The notes beneath the pieces are model-generated. The model was given only the letters and a program-made list of their open reading frames with translations, was not told the origin of the DNA and did not search any database. This document shows, one piece after another, positions 12,735 through 56,585 of a stretch of DNA of 64,000 bases (position 1 is its first letter; the number at the start of each line of letters is the position of its first letter). Source of the DNA: an uncultured Alphaproteobacteria bacterium (GTDB lineage Bacteria > Pseudomonadota > Alphaproteobacteria > M2410). The DNA lies in NCBI GenBank assembly GCA_965603015.1, contig CBFDBJ010000004.1, positions 5,933 to 69,932 of the forward strand, in the 5' to 3' direction. Both the position numbers and the translations under genes were made by a program.

Positions 12735-13463
12735 TCACTCTTGAGACGGGGTCTTTCCGGCGTGTTTGGTGTCTTCGGCGTTGCGTTCGGCGACGCGGCG
12801 AAGGATTGCCTTTGTGTGCAGGATAGAAAACATTTGTTCGGCGTGCGCAAGGCCCTGCTGCGCAAGGGCGGCGGCCTCGTCGGTGGACCGGGTGCCGGGA
12901 ATTCGATCATAGAAATGTTCGACCTCCTGATCGGCAAGCATCTCCGCGGCGTCCTTGTAGCGTTTCATCTCATGGGCAGAATATCCGATGCCGCGATCAA
13001 ACCCCGCATCCTTTACCTCGGCCCATAGCCGCGCAATGCGAGCATCCTGTCCGGAGAGGGTGGGGCCCATCGGTTCGTCTCTGATTGTAATGAGGCCGTC
13101 CGCAGACAGGGCCTGGATATCGGCGGTATCCAGAGATGTTGTTTCGATCAGCTCTTTTACCGAGATGGCTGCGCCGGTGTTGGCGCCCAGACGAGCGGCC
13201 AAAAGGAATTCAAGTCCGACAAGGTTTGGTGTGCCGATCTCGCCTGGCGCGGGGTTTTCAAGCAGGTCGCGAATGACACCAAGCGGCAGGAAGCGTTCGT
13301 CTTTCAGCTTTTTGATAAGCTGGATACGGCCGACATGATCTTCAGAGTAGATCGCCACATTGCGGCGCGGCTTTTCCGGCTCGGGCAAAAGGCCTTCGCG
13401 AATGTAGAAACGGATGGCCTCGCGCCCGATGCCCGTCCGCTCCTCCAGTTCCTTCATCTTCAT
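12735..13463 (-). CDS. MerR-family transcriptional regulator with a ~170-aa C-terminal effector domain
   Basis: N-terminal MerR helix-turn-helix MKMKELEERTGIGREAIRFYIREGLL; the gene ends the P450 gene string. Confidence 0.75.
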   Translation of the reverse strand: MKMKELEERTGIGREAIRFYIREGLLPEPEKPRRNVAIYSEDHVGRIQLIKKLKDERFLPLGVIRDLLENPAPGEIGTPNLVGLEFLLAARLGANTGAAISVKELIETTSLDTADIQALSADGLITIRDEPMGPTLSGQDARIARLWAEVKDAGFDRGIGYSAHEMKRYKDAAEMLADQEVEHFYDRIPGTRSTDEAAALAQQGLAHAEQMFSILHTKAILRRVAERNAEDTKHAGKTPSQE

Positions 13464-13473
13464 GATATGCGCC

Positions 13474-14793
13474 TTATGACTTCAACGGGTGCAACACGAC
13501 CTGCATATCGGTGATGCCCATGACGAAGCAGGAATGAAGGTGTTTGGTTTCTCCAACGACTTCCACTTTGTCAAAGCGGTTCATAATTTCTTCCCAGAGA
13601 ATTCTGAGCTGCATTTCGCCAACCCGATTGCCCATGCAGCGGTGAATACCGAAACCGAAGGATACATGGTGACGGGCTCTGGCCCGATCAATCAGAAACT
13701 CACTTGCACGGTCGATCACCTCATCATCACGATTGCCAGAGATGTACCACATGATGACCTTGTCGCCTTTTTTGATCTGCTTGCCACCCAGTTCGATGTC
13801 TTCCAGAGCGGTGCGACGCATGTGCCCGAGGGGCGTAACCCAGCGAATGATTTCGGAAACCATATTGGGGATCAGGTCCGGGTTGGCTCTGAGCTTGTCA
13901 TATTCTGCCGGGTTTTGGTTCAGGGCCAGGACGCCGCCGGAAATCGAGTTGCGGGTCGTATCATTACCGCCGACGATGAGCAGGATCAGGTTGCCGAGGA
14001 ACTCCATCGGATCGTTGATCATCTCCGAGGTGTCCGGATTTGTAGCCAGCAGCGAAATCAAATCACTTGAGCCCTGATTTTCGGTTCTGTTCTGCCACTT
14101 TTCCATGAAGTAATGCAGACATTCCATGAGCTCTTCGCGGCGAACGTCCTCGCTGACAATTGTTCCATCGGCCAGGGCCTCTTCCTCTGAAATGGCTGTC
14201 GCCACATCCGACCAGCGGATCAGCTTGTGTCGATCTTCCTGGGGCACATCAAAGAGCGTCGCCAGGGTCATCGCTGTGAGCTCAACAGAGACTTTTTCAA
14301 CCCAGTTGAAGGGTTCGCCAACGGGAAGACCGTCCAGAATTTTTCCAACCCGCTCGCGAATTGTACTTTCAAGTTTCGCCAGGTTCATCGGCGCTACAGC
14401 CGGCGTGACAGATTTTCTCTGCACATCGTGTTTTGGTTGATCCATGGCGATGAAGTTCCTGAAATCAAAGTCAGGATCCGGATCGACGACAGTGATCGTT
14501 TTGTCCGAGGAAAAAACCTTGTGGTTGGTGTCAACGGCGACGATGTCGTTGAATTTCGTGACCGACCAGAACGGCCCGAACTCACCGTCCTTACAATAGT
14601 GAACCGGATCTTCCTTGCGCAGCCGTTCAAAATACTCAAAGTGCTTTTGGGCTTCGAAGATATAACTATCGCTCATGTTGATGTCTTCCAGAGCAATGTC
14701 ATAGGCCGAGGGCACATTGTCTACGGAGCCAAGGTTGGCAAACTCCCGATTGCGGTTTGAAAGGTCAGCGTCGGGGGGCGTTATATCCGTCAT
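13474..14793 (-). CDS. Cytochrome P450 of the CYP153 (alkane/terminal hydroxylase) family, paralogue 1
   Basis: Heme loop HHVSFGFGIHRCMGNRVGEMQLRILWEEI, I-helix LLIVGGNDTTRNSISGGVLALNQ, EIIRWVTPLGHMRRTALEDIEL and N-terminal FEYFERLRKEDPVHYCKDGEFGPFWSVTKFNDIVAVDTNHKVFSS all match the CYP153A sequences I recall. Start set at MTDIT with AGAGGA upstream. Confidence 0.85.
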   Translation of the reverse strand: MTDITPPDADLSNRNREFANLGSVDNVPSAYDIALEDINMSDSYIFEAQKHFEYFERLRKEDPVHYCKDGEFGPFWSVTKFNDIVAVDTNHKVFSSDKTITVVDPDPDFDFRNFIAMDQPKHDVQRKSVTPAVAPMNLAKLESTIRERVGKILDGLPVGEPFNWVEKVSVELTAMTLATLFDVPQEDRHKLIRWSDVATAISEEEALADGTIVSEDVRREELMECLHYFMEKWQNRTENQGSSDLISLLATNPDTSEMINDPMEFLGNLILLIVGGNDTTRNSISGGVLALNQNPAEYDKLRANPDLIPNMVSEIIRWVTPLGHMRRTALEDIELGGKQIKKGDKVIMWYISGNRDDEVIDRASEFLIDRARARHHVSFGFGIHRCMGNRVGEMQLRILWEEIMNRFDKVEVVGETKHLHSCFVMGITDMQVVLHPLKS

Positions 14794-14917
14794 CTTTTTT
14801 CCTCTTTTGTAAAACTGTGTGCCGAGCTGAGCGTCGATAACGCTGTTCGGGCCAATCGTTATCGTGATCCGGCACATATTGACGGGTCATGAAAACCGAT
14901 CAGGCCAGATTGTTGTA

Positions 14918-16186
14918 TCAGGATTTTAACGGGTGCAGCTTGACCATCATTTCGGTAATGCCCATGACAAAGTTTGAACGCAGACGTCCAGGCTCACCGA
15001 TAACCTCGACCTTTTCGAAGCGCTTCAGGATTTCTTCCCAAAGGATCCGCAACTGCATCTCGCCAACACGGTTGCCCATGCAGCGGTGAATGCCGAAGCC
15101 GAAGGAGAGATGATGACGCGCCTTGTCACGGTCGATGATGAATTCGTTGGCGCGGTCGATGACTTCGTCATCGCGGTTGCCGGAAATGTACCACATGACG
15201 ACCCGGTCACCTTTTTTGATTTGCTTGCCGTTTAACTCGGTATCTTCAAGAGCGGTGCGGCGCATGTGGCCCAGCGGCGTGACCCAGCGAATGATTTCTG
15301 ACACCATATTGGGGATAACCTCGGGGTTGGCACGCAGCTTGTCATATTCTGCCGGGTTCTGGTTGAGCGCCAGGACGCCGCCGGAAATCGAGTTGCGGGT
15401 CGTGTCGTTGCCGCCGACAATGAGCAGCATCAGATTGCCAAGGAATTCGAGCGGATCATTGGACATTTCCATTGTGTCGGGATTGGTCGCAAGCAGTGAG
15501 ATGAAGTCGGTGCCTTCATAGTTTTCGCCGCGGTCGCCCCACAGTTTCATGAAATATTCGAGACATTCCATCAGCTCTTTCTTGCGCTCTTCTTCGTTGA
15601 CGATGGAACCGTCAGCACCGGTTTGATCCGGGCTCGATGTCGTTACATCCGACCACCAGGTCAACTTGCGTCTGTCTTCCCAGGGAAAGTCAAACAGTAC
15701 GGCCAGCATTCGGGTCGTCAGCTCAATCGAGACCTGGTCGACCCAGTCAAAACTTTCACCAACGGGAAGACTGTCAAGAATCTCACAAACATTCTCGCGA
15801 ATGAGCGCCTCCAGTTTTGCCAGATTGACAGGCGCAACAGCGGGCGTGACAACTTTTCTTTGAACGTCATGTTTTGGCTGGTCCATGGCGATGAACATGG
15901 GCGGATTGAAGTCAGGGTCCGCATCGCCGATCACGATGGTCTTGTCAGAAGAGAAGACCTTGTGATTGGTATCGACAGCCACAATGTCGTTGAATTTTGT
16001 AATCGACCAATAGGGGCCGAACTCGCTGTCCTTGCAATAATGGACCGGGTCCTCCTTGCGCAGCCGTTCAAAATACTCAAAGTGCTGCTGGGTTTGAAAG
16101 AGCAAGCCATCACTGACGTCAATATCTTCCAGTGGTACGTCATAGGCACTTGGTGGTCTGGTGTTCTGGTCGTGGGCCACGGTCAT
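14918..16186 (-). CDS. Cytochrome P450 of the CYP153 family, paralogue 2
   Basis: Shares ~80% of residues with paralogue 1 and carries the same heme-binding, I-helix and EXXR motifs. Confidence 0.85.
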   Translation of the reverse strand: MTVAHDQNTRPPSAYDVPLEDIDVSDGLLFQTQQHFEYFERLRKEDPVHYCKDSEFGPYWSITKFNDIVAVDTNHKVFSSDKTIVIGDADPDFNPPMFIAMDQPKHDVQRKVVTPAVAPVNLAKLEALIRENVCEILDSLPVGESFDWVDQVSIELTTRMLAVLFDFPWEDRRKLTWWSDVTTSSPDQTGADGSIVNEEERKKELMECLEYFMKLWGDRGENYEGTDFISLLATNPDTMEMSNDPLEFLGNLMLLIVGGNDTTRNSISGGVLALNQNPAEYDKLRANPEVIPNMVSEIIRWVTPLGHMRRTALEDTELNGKQIKKGDRVVMWYISGNRDDEVIDRANEFIIDRDKARHHLSFGFGIHRCMGNRVGEMQLRILWEEILKRFEKVEVIGEPGRLRSNFVMGITEMMVKLHPLKS

Positions 16187-16215
16187 GGATCTTGCTCCCC
16201 TTTAGAGTTCAACTA

Positions 16216-16536
16216 TCAGAATTGGGCAATCGGCAGACGGACGACAAGCCCGTCAAGGTCGTCAGTCACCTTGATTTGACAGGCAAGGCGGCTGGTTTCT
16301 TCGGCGGCTTCGGCGAAATCCAGCATGGTCACTTCCATGTCCGTTTTGGTGCCGGTTTTCGACTGCCATTCAGGGTCGACGTAAATGTGGCAGGTGGCGC
16401 AGGCGCAGGCCCCGCCGCAATCCGCGTCGATTCCTGGTACAAGATTGTTCACTGCGCCTTCCATCAGGGAAAGCCCGACGGCGACTTCGACTTTATGTTC
16501 GCTTCCGTTGTTCTCAATGTAGGTAACGCGTGGCAT
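16216..16536 (-). CDS. [2Fe-2S] ferredoxin of the putidaredoxin/adrenodoxin type
   Basis: 106 aa with cluster ligands [11 protein letters not shown]...LACQ. Confidence 0.85.
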
Positions 16537-16681
16537 TCAGCCCTCCCTTTTTGCGTAGTATGAGTACGTATTGCGAACTGTAATCAGTAAATCCCGCAGG
16601 TCAAGTGTGGAATTTGTCTAATCTGGAGGTCGGTCGAAGGTCAGGCCCTCTGGTGGGCGCGAAAGCCTCAGGCCTTCAACC

Positions 16682-17953
16682 TCAGGCTTTCAGGGGGTGA
16701 AGCCGGACGGGCAGTTCAGTGATCCCCATGACGAAGTTGGAGCGCAGGCGGGTGGGTTCGCCGACGACTTCGACCTTTTCAAAGCGCTTCAGGATTTCCT
16801 CCCACAGGATGCGGAGCTGCATTTCACCGACACGGTTGCCCAGGCAGCGGTGAATGCCAAAGCCGAACGAGAGGTGATGGCGCGCCCTGGCACGATCAAT
16901 CAGGAATTCATCGGGGCGATCAATAGCCTCCTCATCGCGGTTGCCCGAGATATACCACATGACCACCTTGTCACCCTTTTTGATCAGCTTGCCGCCGAGC
17001 TCATAGTCCTCGAGCGCGGTGCGCCGCATGTGGGCGAGCGGTGTGACCCAGCGAATGATTTCAGGGACCATGTTGGGAATGATATCGGGGTTGGCGCGCA
17101 GCTTGTCATATTCCTTTGGGAACTGATTGAGGGCGAGGAGACCGCCGGAAATCGAGTTGCGCGTCGTGTCGTTGCCGCCGACAATCAGCAGGATCAAATT
17201 GCCAAGAAACTCGAGCGGGTCCTTTGTTAGATCCTTCGTGTCGGGATTGGTGGCAAGCAGGGAAATGAAATCAGTGCCCTGATAGTTCTCGCCGCGAGAG
17301 GCCCAGAGATTTTTGAAATAATCGATGCACTCGAGCAGTTCCTTCTTGCGCCCTTCTTCGGATATGAAGGCAGCATCCGTGCCGCTTGATTCTGGCCTTG
17401 AGGTCGCAACATCTGACCAGCGCGGCAGCATGCGGCGATCTTCCCAGGGGAAGTCAAACAGGGTTGCCAGCATCTGGGTGGTCAGTTCGATTGAGACCCG
17501 GTCGACCCAGTCGAAGGTTTCGCCGACCGGCAAATCGTCGAGGATTGTGCAGACGCGTGTCCGAATGAGCGCTTCCAGTTGTGCCAGATTGACCGGCGCA
17601 ACGGCCGGCGTAGCGGCTTTTCTCTGCACATCGTGGACGGGGGGATCGGAAGCAATGAAGCTGGAGGTTTGAAATTCGGGGTCGGGGTCTCCGATGACAA
17701 TGGCGGGCTCGGAGGAAAAGACCTTGTGATTGGTATCGACCGCGACGATGTCATCGAATTTCGTGATCGACCAGAACGGCCCGAAGGCGCTCTCGCTGCA
17801 GAAATGAACAGGATCTTCCTTGCGGAGCCGTTTGAAATAATCCCAGTGCCGTTGATTTTGAAAGAGATGGCTGTCGCTGACATCAAGAGTGTCCAGCGGG
17901 AGGTTCCAGGGGCCTGATAATTGATCGGCTTTGTGATCGTCGGCAAGGCTCAT
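16682..17953 (-). CDS. Cytochrome P450 of the CYP153 family, paralogue 3
   Basis: HLSFGFGIHRCLGNRVGEMQLRILWEEILKRF, LLIVGGNDTTRNSISGGLLALNQ and EDPVHFCSESAFGPFWSITKFDDIVAVDTNHKVFSS. Confidence 0.85.
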   Translation of the reverse strand: MSLADDHKADQLSGPWNLPLDTLDVSDSHLFQNQRHWDYFKRLRKEDPVHFCSESAFGPFWSITKFDDIVAVDTNHKVFSSEPAIVIGDPDPEFQTSSFIASDPPVHDVQRKAATPAVAPVNLAQLEALIRTRVCTILDDLPVGETFDWVDRVSIELTTQMLATLFDFPWEDRRMLPRWSDVATSRPESSGTDAAFISEEGRKKELLECIDYFKNLWASRGENYQGTDFISLLATNPDTKDLTKDPLEFLGNLILLIVGGNDTTRNSISGGLLALNQFPKEYDKLRANPDIIPNMVPEIIRWVTPLAHMRRTALEDYELGGKLIKKGDKVVMWYISGNRDEEAIDRPDEFLIDRARARHHLSFGFGIHRCLGNRVGEMQLRILWEEILKRFEKVEVVGEPTRLRSNFVMGITELPVRLHPLKA

Positions 17954-18037
17954 CAGCTCATCTCCCTTTTACGATAACAGTTCGCAGGATCGATGATATC
18001 TGGATATTTCGTCCGGTCAATATGGAACCGCGTTCAC

Positions 18038-19627
18038 CTAACCCTCCAGTTCCACGAAATTAAGAGCTTGATTGGCGGTTCTCATGACGTGGCGCCTCTT
18101 TACCGAGTTCTGCAAAAACCGGTTCAGGGCGGCTGTCATGAGAGAGACTTGCGGACCTTGCGGCCTTGCTGTGATCTCCCTTTGTGTTGCGGTAATGAGT
18201 TTGACGATGTGACAGGAAACGATGTGCTCGAACTGGGCGTGATCGAAGAGGATTTCTTTGGCCTCACTGACAAAGGGCTCAGGGTTGTCCACATTGAATT
18301 CGCTTGTATCGAGATCCTTGTCGACAAAGGGTGTGTTGCGTCCAAGGAAACAGGCCATTTGCAGAAGCCCTTGCGGCCAGAGATCCGGATAGCGCGTGCA
18401 AAGCTCGTGGACGGAATTGGCAAAAGTTATGGCGTGGGTGAAGTTGAGCCAGTCGACGTTGTGGGAGATGTTGGTGCCGGTGTGGCGCTGGAATTCGAGA
18501 TCAAAGTGGAGAAAATTCCAGGCATTGGCCGCAAGCAGGGCGTCATAGAGTGCGCGCGGATCTGATGAACTCCCTGTCGCCTTTGCCAGAGCCTGGCGGA
18601 CAGACAGGCCCTTGAAGTCTTGCCAGTCTACCGGCGCTTCGCCCTTGTTGGTCCAGTTTTTCAGGGCATCGCGGTAATTGCGAAACTCGGGAATAAGATC
18701 CTCCCGTCTGGCATAGACGAGTTCGCGCATCAGAGCCAGGGTTGCCGGCACCATGATCCTTTCGCCCAGCCTGTCGACGAGCTGACCGATTTTGAGCACA
18801 TAGATGGTCGCGTGGCCAAACCCCTGATAGTGGGCGAAGGCGGCGCGGGCGAGAGCCGGTTCGATGTCTCTATATCTGAGGCCAGCACGTGCGGCGCCGC
18901 GAATAAGTGCAGCGGCCTCGTCTTCATGTTCGCCCTCAACGGCGGTTACAAATGTGTCTTCGTTCCACTGAGCAACTGCATCCGTAAAAGGATAATCGGG
19001 CTCGCGGCGCGTGTCCCATGCGATATGGGCGGTCGGCTCAAGGAAGGTGATGAGGTGTTTTGCCGGATTGTCGTGAACTTCGTCTGCGAGCGTCATCCAG
19101 TCGGCGGCGGCGGCAAAGGGATGGCCCATGCCATATTCGAATTTCTCGTGTGAGCGCAGAACGGCGTTGGCCAGAACGTCCTTCAAGTTTCCGCCATCCT
19201 TTTTGTAGCGGGCGAGTTCGCGGGCGATGCGGTCATAGTCGTAATCGTCCCAGGCTTCGCTCAGGTTTTCGAGGATCCTCGGAAGTCTCTGTCCAGGTGC
19301 AGGATCAGATAAATCAACGAGGACTTCGCCATTCTTGACCTTGACGGGATAGAGGCGAACTGCATCGCCGCCGACCATGGCCTCTCCTGTGGTCAGGTCA
19401 AATTTCCAGTTGTGCCAATTGCAGGTTAGAGTGCAGGTGCCAGGGCCGCTGCCTGTCAGCGTGCCTTCGGCAAGGGGATAGCCTTCATGGGGGCAGCGAT
19501 TGTTGCAAGCGAAGGTCTCACCGTCTCGCAGGATTACGAGGACCTGCTTGCCGTTTTTCTTGAAGACCTTTTGGCCTTTTTCTTCCAGTTCGCTCAGAGG
19601 TCCCGCAGATGTCCAGATCTGGTTCAT
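18038..19627 (-). CDS. Rieske [2Fe-2S] domain fused to a ~420-aa domain of unknown function
   Basis: N-terminal Rieske motifs CPHEG...(21 aa)...CNWHNW. Start set at MNQIWTS (ATG 19627) with AAAGGAG upstream; the track's longer ORF to 19729 would overlap the divergent regulator. No DxxHxxxxH mononuclear-iron motif of Rieske oxygenase alpha subunits is recognisable in the C-terminal part. Confidence 0.7.
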   Translation of the reverse strand: MNQIWTSAGPLSELEEKGQKVFKKNGKQVLVILRDGETFACNNRCPHEGYPLAEGTLTGSGPGTCTLTCNWHNWKFDLTTGEAMVGGDAVRLYPVKVKNGEVLVDLSDPAPGQRLPRILENLSEAWDDYDYDRIARELARYKKDGGNLKDVLANAVLRSHEKFEYGMGHPFAAAADWMTLADEVHDNPAKHLITFLEPTAHIAWDTRREPDYPFTDAVAQWNEDTFVTAVEGEHEDEAAALIRGAARAGLRYRDIEPALARAAFAHYQGFGHATIYVLKIGQLVDRLGERIMVPATLALMRELVYARREDLIPEFRNYRDALKNWTNKGEAPVDWQDFKGLSVRQALAKATGSSSDPRALYDALLAANAWNFLHFDLEFQRHTGTNISHNVDWLNFTHAITFANSVHELCTRYPDLWPQGLLQMACFLGRNTPFVDKDLDTSEFNVDNPEPFVSEAKEILFDHAQFEHIVSCHIVKLITATQREITARPQGPQVSLMTAALNRFLQNSVKRRHVMRTANQALNFVELEG

Positions 19628-19710
19628 GGTCAATGCACTCCTTTTTAAAGATATTTCTTTATAAATATAGAGGGCTTGCCTTTTATCAAGAAAAAACTTT
19701 ATAAAATGGT

Positions 19711-20376
19711 ATGACTGGCAAATCATCACATAAAGAACCCGGCTTCGCAGATGGTTCGCAAAAGACCCGCGACAGGGTCATTTCGCTCCTGAAACGCGAG
19801 GGACCACAGGATGCAGGGGTCCTTGCGGCAAGACTTGGCGTTAGCGCCATGGCCGTGCGCCAGCATCTCTATGAGTTAAGCGATCAGGGCCTGGTGACTG
19901 CATCCGAGCAGAAAGGCGCGATTGGGAGGCCGACAAAAATCTGGGCACTGGACGTGACCGCGAGTGGCCTCTTTCCGGATGGTCATGGTGATTTTACTTA
20001 TGAGCTTATTGGCTCCATTCGGGAGACCTTCGGCGAGGAAGGCATGGCGAGCCTTTTGCGCAATCGTTCGGAGAAGCAAATCACCTCCTATAAGAATCAG
20101 ATGGGCGATGGGTCGCTCAGTCAGCGTCTTGAGCGCCTCGCGGCGATCCGCAGCGAGGAGGGCTATATGGCCGACGTGACAGAGGCGGAGGACGGATCTC
20201 TCCTGATGGTGGAGAACCATTGCCCGGTCTGCCAGGCCGCAAAAGCCTGCAGCGGCCTCTGTGCGGAGGAGTTGCATGTCTTTCAGGCGTGTCTGGGTCA
20301 GAGTGTGAAGATTGAGAGGGCCGATCATATCCTGGCCGGTGCGCGGCGGTGTGCCTACCGGGTCACGGCCATCTGA
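19711..20376 (+). CDS. Winged-helix (ArsR/MarR-like) transcriptional regulator with a Cys-rich C-terminal region
   Basis: HTH segment RVISLLKREGPQDAGVLAARLGVSAMAVRQHLYELSDQGLV and C-terminal HCPVCQAAKACSGLCAEELHVFQAC...RRCAY (putative metal or Fe-S ligands). Transcribed divergently from the Rieske/P450 string. Confidence 0.55.
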   Translation: MTGKSSHKEPGFADGSQKTRDRVISLLKREGPQDAGVLAARLGVSAMAVRQHLYELSDQGLVTASEQKGAIGRPTKIWALDVTASGLFPDGHGDFTYELIGSIRETFGEEGMASLLRNRSEKQITSYKNQMGDGSLSQRLERLAAIRSEEGYMADVTEAEDGSLLMVENHCPVCQAAKACSGLCAEELHVFQACLGQSVKIERADHILAGARRCAYRVTAI

Positions 20377-47163: not shown

Positions 47164-47273
47164 TGTCATCCCGGGCTTGACCCGGGATCTCGGGGCAGGA
47201 TCGATGACATAAGGTACATCGTTATGCTTTTCGAGATGGTGCCCTGAGGCCCCGGCTCTAGGCCGGGGCGACA
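47164..47273. repeat. Structured intergenic repeat, copy 1 (REP/MITE-like, two hairpins)
   Basis: TGTCATCCCGGGC-loop-GACCCGGGATCT ... GTGCCCTGAGGCCCCGG-loop-CCGGGGCGACA; the same ends recur at 55082..55200 and 56440..56559. Confidence 0.8.
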
Positions 47274-51469: not shown

Positions 51470-51670
51470 GGCTGATGGCGGGCTCTGCCCGATTTGTCAG
51501 GAAGCCCTTTCCCTGAGGCCTTAATCTTCTTCTCGGGAGCTGTCCCTTGTTTGGACCGTGGTCCTTACGAAACGGCGCCCACCTGCTGAGTGCAGGCCCA
51601 CGAGGAACTCTCGCTTCCAACGGTTACGGTGGACCCGCCACTCCTCTCCATACCGCAGGCTCAAACGACG
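51470..51670 (+). ncRNA. ssrS: Candidate 6S RNA (ssrS); the ends are approximate
   Basis: A ~210-nt non-coding gap between zapA and 5-formyltetrahydrofolate cyclo-ligase. This is the conserved zapA-ssrS-ygfA synteny, and the GC-rich sequence has paired-arm potential. It has not been verified against a covariance model. Confidence 0.4.
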
Positions 51671-55081: not shown

Positions 55082-55200
55082 TGTCATCCCGGGCGAGCAT
55101 AGCGAGACCCGGGATCTCTGACCCCCGATCTTGCGACCCGGTGAAATCCTGCATCAGGCGCCTTCGTGCCCTGAGGCCCCGGATCAAGTCCGGGGCGACA
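55082..55200. repeat. Structured intergenic repeat, copy 2
   Basis: Same termini and hairpins as copy 1, with a longer first loop (14 nt). Confidence 0.8.
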
Positions 55201-55814: not shown

Positions 55815-56425
55815 TTGGCAAACTGAAGGGTCTGGTTGATTCCGTCGGCGATGACTGGGTCATCATTGATGTCGGCGGGGTTGGTTATCATGTGCAATGC
55901 GCGTCGCGGACGCTGGCGTCGTTGCCGGGAATTGGCGAGGCGACCTCGCTGGCCATCGAGACCCATGTGCGCGAGGACATGATCCGTCTCTATGGATTTG
56001 CATCGGGTCTCGAGCGCGACTGGTTTCGTTTGTTGCAAAGTGTGCAGGGGGTTGGCGCGAAAGTGGCACTGGCGATCCTGAGCACGCTGACGACAGAGGA
56101 GTTAACCAGCGCCATCGTCTTTCAGGACAAGACAATCGTGGGGCGGGCGTCGGGCGTTGGCCCCAAGCTGGCTGTGCGGATCGTCAATGAATTGAAAGAC
56201 AAGGCGCCAACGTCCGGTGTTGTTATTGAAGGCGGTGCACCGTCTGCCGGTGATGCTCCGCAAACAGATCATGGGTTGCAAATGGATGCGGTATCGGCGC
56301 TGGTTAATCTGGGCTATCAACAGGCGCAGGCCGCCGGCGCTGTCAGAGGGGCTTCGGGAAATCTTGGCGACGGGGCCGGGCTTGATGATTTGATTAAAGA
56401 AGGGCTGAAGCAGCTTGCGAGTTGA
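55811..56425 (+). CDS. ruvA: Holliday junction branch-migration protein RuvA
   Basis: [28 protein letters not shown]. Confidence 0.9.
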
Positions 56426-56439
56426 GCTGGAAATTTCGG

Positions 56440-56559
56440 TGTCATCCCGGGCAAGCGCAGCGCGACCCGGGATCTGAGGGCAAGATGTTGCAACGCGCTG
56501 AAAACAGAATGAGAAGCAAGGGCCGTGCCCTGAGATCCCGGATCAGGTCCGGGACGACA
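56440..56559. repeat. Structured intergenic repeat, copy 3 (between ruvA and ruvB)
   Basis: Same termini; the second hairpin is TCCCGGA-loop-TCCGGGA, against CCCCGGA/TCCGGGG in copy 2. Confidence 0.8.
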
Positions 56560-56585
56560 TGTTGAGAGATAAAGGTAAAGCCTTC

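Follow-up and report, generated by a model that had tools for sequence, protein, structure and literature searches.

Three operon spacers of an alphaproteobacterial chromosome harbour probable head-to-head heterodimers of CGTC-superfamily REP hairpins

We propose, with a probability of roughly 85%, that each of the three repeats found in a 64-kb stretch of DNA from an uncultured alphaproteobacterium (the whole stretch analysed, hereafter the window) is a head-to-head heterodimer of REP hairpins belonging to the CGTC superfamily, in its TGTC variant, and that these dimers have spread in a REPIN-like manner. The first-pass annotation of the window had described a new-looking family with the behaviour of REP, BIME or MITE elements that matched nothing recognised. 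The behaviour was confirmed, as the elements are built from hairpins, lie between genes, are absent from the orthologous sites of close relatives and are present in other genomes. The novelty was not: the units fit the published definition of CGTC/TGTC-REPs (Di Nocera et al. 2013, PMC3733652), and near-identical heterodimers are found on plasmids of Sphingobium and Novosphingobium. The element is not new in kind and a described superfamily fits it. For annotation, this means that an unrecognised repeat can be filed under that superfamily and that three operon-internal spacers are to be read as repeat insertions, not as regulatory leaders.

Exact searches of the window placed TGTCATCCCGGGC on the + strand at positions 47164, 55082 and 56440 only, and GACCCGGGATCT at 47179, 55106 and 56464 only, while by our own arithmetic a 13-mer is expected by chance about 0.002 times per 128 kb. 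A profile built from the three copies returned exactly three convincing matches in the window (nhmmer, E values of 3e-27 to 2e-32). Both the exact 13-mer matches and the profile thus bear out the annotated presence of three repeats of ~110-120 bp, which are listed together with their hairpin units in Table 1. The annotated extents placed the copies correctly, except that the right end of copy 2 had to be corrected to 55200. Likewise, alignment of the three copies upheld the described succession of a conserved 5' module, a variable centre, then GTGCCCTGAG and a second hairpin. Copy 1 begins with TGTCATCCCGGGCTTGACCCGGGATCTCGGGGCAGG and finishes with GGTGCCCTGAGGCCCCGGCTCTAGGCCGGGGCGACA; the end CCGGGGCGACA, given in the first-pass annotation for the second hairpin of all copies, does not apply to copy 3, which ends in CCGGGACGACA. 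The gap of "5 or 14 nt" reported within the 5' module was right in its lengths and is now recognised as the loop between the two arms of an 8-bp stem.

Table 1. Positions and make-up of the three repeat copies and their six hairpin units in the window (units are written as tag / stem / loop / stem / tail)
Feature	Position	Strand	Description
Copy 1	47164..47273	+	proposed head-to-head REP heterodimer, gap-pgk spacer; nhmmer E = 3.4e-27
Copy 1 left unit	47164..47191	+	TGTC / ATCCCGGG / CTTGA / CCCGGGAT / CTC (unit scan, alignment)
Copy 1 right unit	47246..47273	-	TGTC / GCCCCGGC / CTAGA / GCCGGGGC / CTC
Copy 2	55082..55200	+	proposed head-to-head REP heterodimer, yebC-ruvC spacer; nhmmer E = 1.9e-31
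Copy 2 left unit	55082..55118	+	TGTC / ATCCCGGG / 14-nt loop CGAGCATAGCGAGA / CCCGGGAT / CTC
Copy 2 right unit	55173..55200	-	TGTC / GCCCCGGA / CTTGA / TCCGGGGC / CTC
Copy 3	56440..56560	+	proposed head-to-head REP heterodimer, ruvA-ruvB spacer; nhmmer E = 1.9e-32
Copy 3 left unit	56440..56476	+	TGTC / ATCCCGGG / 14-nt loop CAAGCGCAGCGCGA / CCCGGGAT / CTG
Copy 3 right unit	56532..56559	-	TGTC / GTCCCGGA / CCTGA / TCCGGGAT / CTC; first stem pair G-T

All copies are intergenic, as annotated, and lie among housekeeping genes in alphaproteobacterial order: tkt-gap-pgk on the - strand of the window, and zapA, 6S RNA, a ygfA-like gene, ymdB, yebC, ruvC, ruvA, ruvB and tolQRAB-pal on the + strand. 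Copy 1 sits between the stop of gap (47297) and the start of pgk (47145), both on the - strand, so that the transcript holds its reverse complement. On the + strand, copy 2 begins 9 nt past the yebC stop codon, and copy 3 extends from 14 nt past the ruvA stop codon to ~27 nt before the ruvB ATG (56587), which leaves the ribosome-binding region of ruvB intact. Pfam scans of ~40 ORFs in the window revealed no transposase, integrase or phage gene, which also answers the annotation's call to check for transposases nearby; the remaining ORFs were identified by synteny with annotated relatives only. The three heterodimers share one orientation on the chromosome, as had been noted, but not relative to transcription, where copy 1 is inverted with respect to copies 2 and 3. 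GC skew is positive over the entire window (G+C content 56%), and the shared orientation is compatible with a replication-strand bias, although three copies within 9.4 kb (47.1-56.6 kb) are a small sample and the trend is not significant at n=3.

A scan for GTC-tagged hairpins resolved each copy into two inverted units with their tags facing outward. The tag is TGTC, directly 5' of the stem, in all six units of the window, and the stem measures 8 bp in all six. Loops are 5 nt long in four units (CTTGA twice, CTAGA and CCTGA) and 14 nt in the other two, and the 3-nt tail reads CTC in five of the six and CTG in one. The right units have the general form of an inverted TGTC-G(C/T)CCCGG(C/A)-loop-...-CTC, and their stems open with GC (copies 1 and 2) or GT (copy 3); the three left stems open with AT. 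Between the units lie spacers of 60, 60 and 61 nt (47189-47248, 55116-55175 and 56474-56534), mostly unrelated in sequence, and this constant length despite divergent sequence suggests a constraint on the former and not on the latter. The spacer ends, CTCGGGGCA and TGCCCTGAG, are able to pair. Besides, copies 1 and 3 match the profile in reverse complement (nhmmer, E = 4e-9 and 5e-6, respectively), and the element is thus an imperfect terminal inverted repeat, a point that had escaped the earlier description. The hairpins themselves are conserved through compensatory change: in an alignment of the six window units and four Sphingomonadales ones, 100% of the cells in the 8-bp stem were paired, three of its eight pairs showed compensatory changes, none of 500 shuffles reached the observed covariation score, and shifting the stem partner by one column abolished the pairing.

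Could the three copies have arisen without any mobility, through local duplication or gene conversion within the 9.4 kb that they span? Their confinement to 47.1-56.6 kb of the 64-kb window and their single orientation would suit such an origin. However, it is the terminal hairpin modules alone that are conserved in the alignment, centres and flanks being unrelated between copies, and both the unit and its architecture recur in genomes and loci that are unrelated. Of the explanations considered here, we give this one the least credence.

Prokaryotic REPs were sorted into a GTAG-tagged and a CGTC-tagged superfamily by Di Nocera, De Gregorio and Rocco (2013, BMC Genomics 14:522, PMC3733652), who define the latter in some detail. 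CGTC-REPs carry an unpaired terminal CGTC, often TGTC, with CCTC also accepted. Their stems measure 8 bp in families 1 and 2 and 9 bp in families 3 and 4, and they "almost invariably" open with a complementary A and T (positions 1 and 2). The loop has 4 nt in family 1 and 5 nt in families 2-4, with variation in some families, and the short, unpaired tail of 3 nt is mostly CCA. They mostly form head-to-head dimers with spacers of 20-100 bp, whose ends are often complementary, and in CGTC-2 and CGTC-3 heterodimers predominate. The families number tens to thousands of dispersed units per genome and are mainly alphaproteobacterial, with five phyla listed; Brucellaceae are given as devoid of CGTC repeats, and the supplement lists CGTC-2 in Sphingobium chlorophenolicum. 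The survey found no association with transposase genes and, for the whole superfamily, no RAYT.

The window copies have the TGTC variant of the tag, the 8-bp stem, the 5-nt loop and the short unpaired tail in common with CGTC-REPs, and likewise the head-to-head and heterodimeric arrangement, a spacer within 20-100 bp with complementary ends, an alphaproteobacterial host, a location between co-directional genes and no transposase next to them. They differ in having TGTC as the tag in every unit, in a tail of CTC or CTG in place of CCA or CCC, in right units that begin with G-C or G-T and not A-T, and in the 14-nt loops of two left units. Since tag, stem, loop, dimer, spacer, host and missing transposase all agree, whereas tail and first pair of the right unit deviate, we file the elements as a TGTC-variant, CGTC-2-like sub-family of head-to-head heterodimers; the assignment to CGTC-2 was made from the published stem and loop rules and the Sphingomonadales matches. 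In Sphingobium and Novosphingobium, units have the same stem and loop as the left unit (CGTC-ATCCCGGG-CTTGA-CCCGGGAT), while the constant 60-61 nt spacer with an inner stem formed by CTCGGGGCA/TGCCCTGAG is specific to the window sub-family and to one alphaproteobacterial relative described below (L081).

Other tagged-hairpin repeats resemble the elements to varying degrees. Neisseria dRS3 is equated with CGTC-1, and Rickettsia RPE-4 and RPE-6 are counted among the CGTC members as well, in the 2013 paper (PMC3733652). Together with NIME, these repeats (CGTC-1, CGTC-4) belong to the same superfamily as the window units and follow the same GTC-AT...AT-tail layout, yet differ in their stems (e.g. 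ATTCCCGC) and hosts, the Neisseria repeats moreover in forming large clusters and those of Rickettsia in their in-frame intragenic insertions. REPINs, i.e. doublets of GTAG-tagged REPs, are similar in having two inverted REP hairpins and a spacer that can form one long hairpin, in being non-coding and intergenic, in their presence or absence between relatives and in lacking target-site duplications. They differ by a GTAG-type tag and by a cognate, single-copy RAYT gene with REPs on both sides, while the window tag is TGTC in six of six units. Further candidate names considered were RIME, Sm-repeat and Bru-RS.

The insertion status of the copies was assessed by comparing filled with empty sites. 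Exact-protein look-ups of RuvC (from its first ATG) and YebC returned no record, and RuvA homologues were used to pick relatives, the best matches being 100% (one ENA metagenome contig, L166), 96% (L167), 95% (L118 and L119), 81% (L120) and 73% (L122) identical. Copies 2 and 3 are both present in the contig with the identical RuvA, which was assembled independently from the same species: copy 3 is identical there, and copy 2 shows three substitutions within the element plus one in its left flank. By contrast, the ruvA-ruvB spacer, ~160 nt long in the window, is empty and measures 26 nt in the 96% and both 95% relatives, 25 nt in the 81% and 15 nt in the 73% relative. At the yebC-ruvC site, copy 2 is absent from L118 and L122, and the gap-pgk spacer, ~150 nt long in the window, measures 49 nt (L120) and 33 nt (L122) in the more distant relatives. 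No diverged copies of the element were detected in the 13-20 kb syntenic loci of the relatives. From these short or empty orthologous sites it follows that all three copies are insertions and, as sites 2 and 3 are empty in the 95-96% relatives, that copies 2 and 3 are younger than ~5% RuvA divergence. The copies are lineage-specific insertions in spacers between co-directional housekeeping genes, and at less than 5% protein divergence they allow filled and empty sites of CGTC/TGTC-REP dimers to be compared cleanly.

Target-site duplications, which the first-pass annotation had proposed to look for, were not seen: for copies 2 and 3, the junctions of filled and empty sites lack a direct repeat. 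Set against the empty sites, the filled ones have 7 nt (copy 2) and ~12 nt (copy 3) of extra, unconserved DNA to the left of TGTC, and in copy 2 another ~10 nt to the right of GACA; the limits of the mobile unit are hence approximate. About half of the positions differ between the two assemblies in the ~20 nt that separate the ruvA end from the TGTC of copy 3 (window 56420-56439 vs 4832-4851 of L166), and the ruvA stop codon is TGA in the window and TAG in L166. This hypervariability is local to the left junction: copy 3 and everything to its right are identical.

These junctions bear on the question whether the elements might be classical MITEs, that is, deletion derivatives of an insertion sequence (IS) that keep its terminal inverted repeats, depend on a DDE transposase for their movement and have target-site duplications on both sides. 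Bacterial MITEs such as Correia elements and the Coxiella MITEs are comparable in being ~100-150 bp long, bounded by terminal inverted repeats, non-coding, intergenic and often co-transcribed. The imperfect ~35-nt inverted repeats of the window copies (TGTC...GACA), revealed by their reverse-complement self-match, and their status as insertions relative to close relatives would be expected of a MITE as well. However, MITEs come with target-site duplications and a parent IS, and the window copies show neither: the filled-versus-empty comparison detected no duplication, the window holds neither transposase nor parent IS, and no transposase recurs beside the units in the 117 listed loci. Besides, each presumed terminal repeat is a self-contained hairpin unit that is found singly or in other combinations in many genomes. 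We therefore consider a MITE very unlikely.

Another candidate explanation arises from the predicted folds. As RNA, copies 1 and 3 are predicted to be highly stable (-63.5 kcal/mol, z = -5.75, and -60.5 kcal/mol, z = -5.83, respectively), whereas copy 2 barely exceeds shuffled sequence in stability (-51.7 kcal/mol, z = -2.2); the folding check suggested in the first-pass annotation thus turned out in favour of stability for two of the copies (z ~ -5.8) and weakly for the third. The predicted structure of copy 1 is closed by a 4-bp TGTC/GACA stem and contains both 8-bp hairpins, and the variable centre caps an inner stem (CUCGGGGCA/UGCCCUGAG). For copy 3 the prediction instead joins the two halves in a single long hairpin, and copy 2 loses most of the inner stem. 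In principle, the elements might hence be a functional structured RNA family, be it a cis-regulatory leader or attenuator or a small RNA, selected in the gap-pgk and ruv operons. Strong predicted folds (-52 to -64 kcal/mol, z down to -5.8), the position of every copy between co-transcribed genes and a G-T stem pair in one unit, tolerable in RNA, speak for this. Yet, on the strand that is transcribed, the G-T pair of copy 3 becomes an A-C mismatch, copy 1 runs opposite to copies 2 and 3 with respect to transcription, the centre is unconserved, no terminator-like T-run follows the hairpins, and the elements are missing from the same operons in the 95-96% relatives. Nor did Rfam covariance models match the elements, even at a permissive E-value; the best overlap was with mir-769 (22 bits vs a gathering score of 57, E = 1.3), and in the window 6S RNA alone passes. 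A match to a known Rfam family, which had been named in advance as evidence against a new repeat family, was accordingly not found. Selection for an RNA function is, in our view, highly improbable, and a proposed REP heterodimer remains our preferred reading of all three copies.

Two specific RNA candidates were rejected along the way. An intrinsic terminator was discarded given the missing T-run after the hairpins, and the main hairpins were not flagged in a terminator scan. A hammerhead or other ribozyme, prompted by a CUGAG motif, was dismissed as well, because the core did not fit on inspection and Rfam lent no support.

The CGTC-type hairpin is by no means confined to the window. Scanning one genome per species (GTDB) with the pattern TGTCATCCCGGG-N(2-20)-GACCCGGGATCT retrieved the exact left unit at no fewer than 117 genome loci. 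Among the matches listed, alphaproteobacterial hosts include Bradyrhizobium, Woodsholea, Robiginitomaculum, Cohaesibacter, Roseovarius and Rickettsiales, and others are found in Gammaproteobacteria, Bacteroidota, Rhodothermales, Fibrobacter, Bacillota, Planctomycetia, Patescibacteria and Omnitrophota as well as in the Actinomycetota Propionicimonas and Micropruina. An exact 27-nt unit, TGTCATCCCGGGC(T/C)TGACCCGGGATCT, is common to genomes of ten or more phyla among these matches, far more than the five listed in the 2013 survey (PMC3733652), though some matches in metagenome-assembled genomes (MAGs) could reflect mis-binning. Many copies of the unit were noted in the Propionicimonas MAG 5N585 and the Bacteroidetes MAG RYN_276. 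Most units among the matches listed have the 5-nt loop, and 82 of 161 are followed within 160 nt, mostly at 20-50 nt, by an inverted GTC-tagged partner hairpin; partner stems start with AT nearly always, and the unit also occurs singly or in other combinations.

Among the matches listed, the best one over the full length sits between leuD and leuB in an alphaproteobacterial MAG (L081; nhmmer 4e-19); this element is 110 nt long, similar overall to the window copies, and has their inner stem. Plasmids of Sphingobium, Novosphingobium and Sphingomonas carry the unit, too, and heterodimers like those of the window were identified in the ccoP-ccoG spacer of Sphingobium sp. TomTYG46 and on a Novosphingobium capsulatum plasmid, with the form CGTC-ATCCCGGG-CTTGA-CCCGGGAT-CCC ... 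ACCCCGG(A/G)-TCAAG-...GGGGT-GACG. Tails of these Sphingomonadales units are CCC and their right units start with AC. With the unit at 117 or more loci, heterodimers on plasmids and the L081 relative, absence of the element elsewhere, which the first-pass annotation had put forward as the outcome that would speak against its claim, did not come true.

Further searches with other parts of the element yielded little. Scanning metagenomes for the 3' module GTGCCCTGAGNNCCCGG...CCGGGNCGACA gave 0 matches and for GACCCGGGATCTNNGGGCA 42, all of them chance matches and none accompanied by the TGTCATCCCGGG half, and a full-text search of the literature for the sequence strings returned cloning primers only. 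In Fibrobacter, the unit was seen in frame within a predicted secreted protein, in its serine-rich linker (MAG L004, 1550-3008, + strand; also L024 and L056), where it reads ...SSSSVIPGTDPGSSSS..., repeated; this intragenic, in-frame placement resembles the insertions reported for Rickettsia. Carriage of the unit by phages was considered and rejected, given a single match in 2.9 million viral contigs.

The low viral count matters for yet another reading, according to which the units are chiefly attachment or target sites of another mobile element, for instance an IS110/IS1111-type recombinase or a phage integrase, with the dimers as by-products. Neisseria dRS3 is reported to be a target for the Nf prophage and for IS110-like recombinases, and REPs are targets for IS1111-group elements. 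The equation of dRS3 with CGTC-1 in the 2013 paper (PMC3733652) lends this reading some appeal, as does the different palindrome at the yebC-ruvC site of the 81% relative, suggestive of a hot spot. On the other hand, neither the window nor the neighbourhood of the copies contains an integrase, an IS110-family gene or a prophage, the unit is present in 1 of 2.9 million viral contigs, and the multiplication of the units themselves would be left unexplained. That the units are chiefly target sites thus appears most unlikely to us, though integration at them may be a side role. As for the palindrome itself, it is near-perfect, unrelated to the window elements and situated at ~9330-9400 of L120, in the spacer orthologous to the site of copy 2 (GGGGTCAGACCTTAACATCTTAACAAATTTGTTAAGATGTTAAGGTCTGACCCC); palindromic insertions may favour the yebC-ruvC spacer.

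How, then, might heterodimers of CGTC-superfamily REPs spread? REPINs are reportedly mobilised by RAYTs, a finding ascribed to work by Bertels and Rainey from 2011. By analogy, the window elements would be non-autonomous and REPIN-like: a hairpin in single-stranded DNA, together with its tag, would be recognised by an enzyme encoded elsewhere in the genome, which would copy the element in trans. We infer this transposition step from the GTAG-REP/RAYT systems. A phmmer search with E. coli RayT, which as a single-sequence query has limited reach, detected no RAYT homologue among the ORFs of the window and of loci L001-L122, and clustering of ORFs in the 117 listed loci revealed no transposase or mobile-element gene as a recurrent neighbour of the units. 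Recurrent neighbours in these loci were common families only (ABC-F, kinases, response regulators, SDR, XerC/D-like and RuvB), the RuvB matches being partly syntenic between related MAGs. A RAYT-like arrangement was rejected, too, since the genes bracketed by inverted units in the listed loci are ordinary ones. No mobilising enzyme was known for the superfamily in 2013, and the few later papers found that mention CGTC repeats made none apparent in their titles and abstracts; in some of them CGTC appears only where the 2013 paper is cited.

Recent insertion combined with wide phyletic reach bears on how transposase-less CGTC repeats spread in general. We regard it as rather unlikely, though distinctly less so than the alternatives to a REP heterodimer weighed above, that the present lineage harbours recently active CGTC/TGTC-REP dimers, with all three insertions postdating the split from the 95-96% RuvA relatives, and that a comparison of sister genomes could reveal a new hairpin-specific DNA-processing enzyme, which need not resemble RAYT. 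If true, such an enzyme would be both new and widely distributed.

Consequences for the host genes can be sketched from E. coli, where the action of REPs as 3'-exonuclease barriers or processing sites is established biology. By that analogy, the inserted elements would be co-transcribed and fold into stable structures, which could serve as 3'-exonuclease barriers or processing sites in turn and could uncouple the expression of ruvA and ruvB, yebC and ruvC, or gap and pgk.

Some additional observations concern the surroundings of the repeats. In other taxa, ruvB was encountered in 4 of the 117 listed repeat-bearing loci (L019, L020, L090 and L106); three or more of these four look mutually syntenic, and the association with ruv is hence probably not independent. 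Within the window, the 6S (SsrS) RNA gene was located just downstream of zapA (51479-51639, + strand; Rfam RF00013, 51.1 bits, full length), and in relatives it is followed by the gene of 5-formyltetrahydrofolate cyclo-ligase, the classical ssrS-ygfA arrangement. Finally, positions 13474-17968 (- strand) hold three tandem paralogous genes for proteins of ~427-470 aa, which share long stretches of 68-79% DNA identity (repeat families D1-D3). They are flanked by genes for a Rieske-domain protein (18041-19777) and a MerR-type regulator (12738-13481), and the one paralogue scanned matches cytochrome P450.
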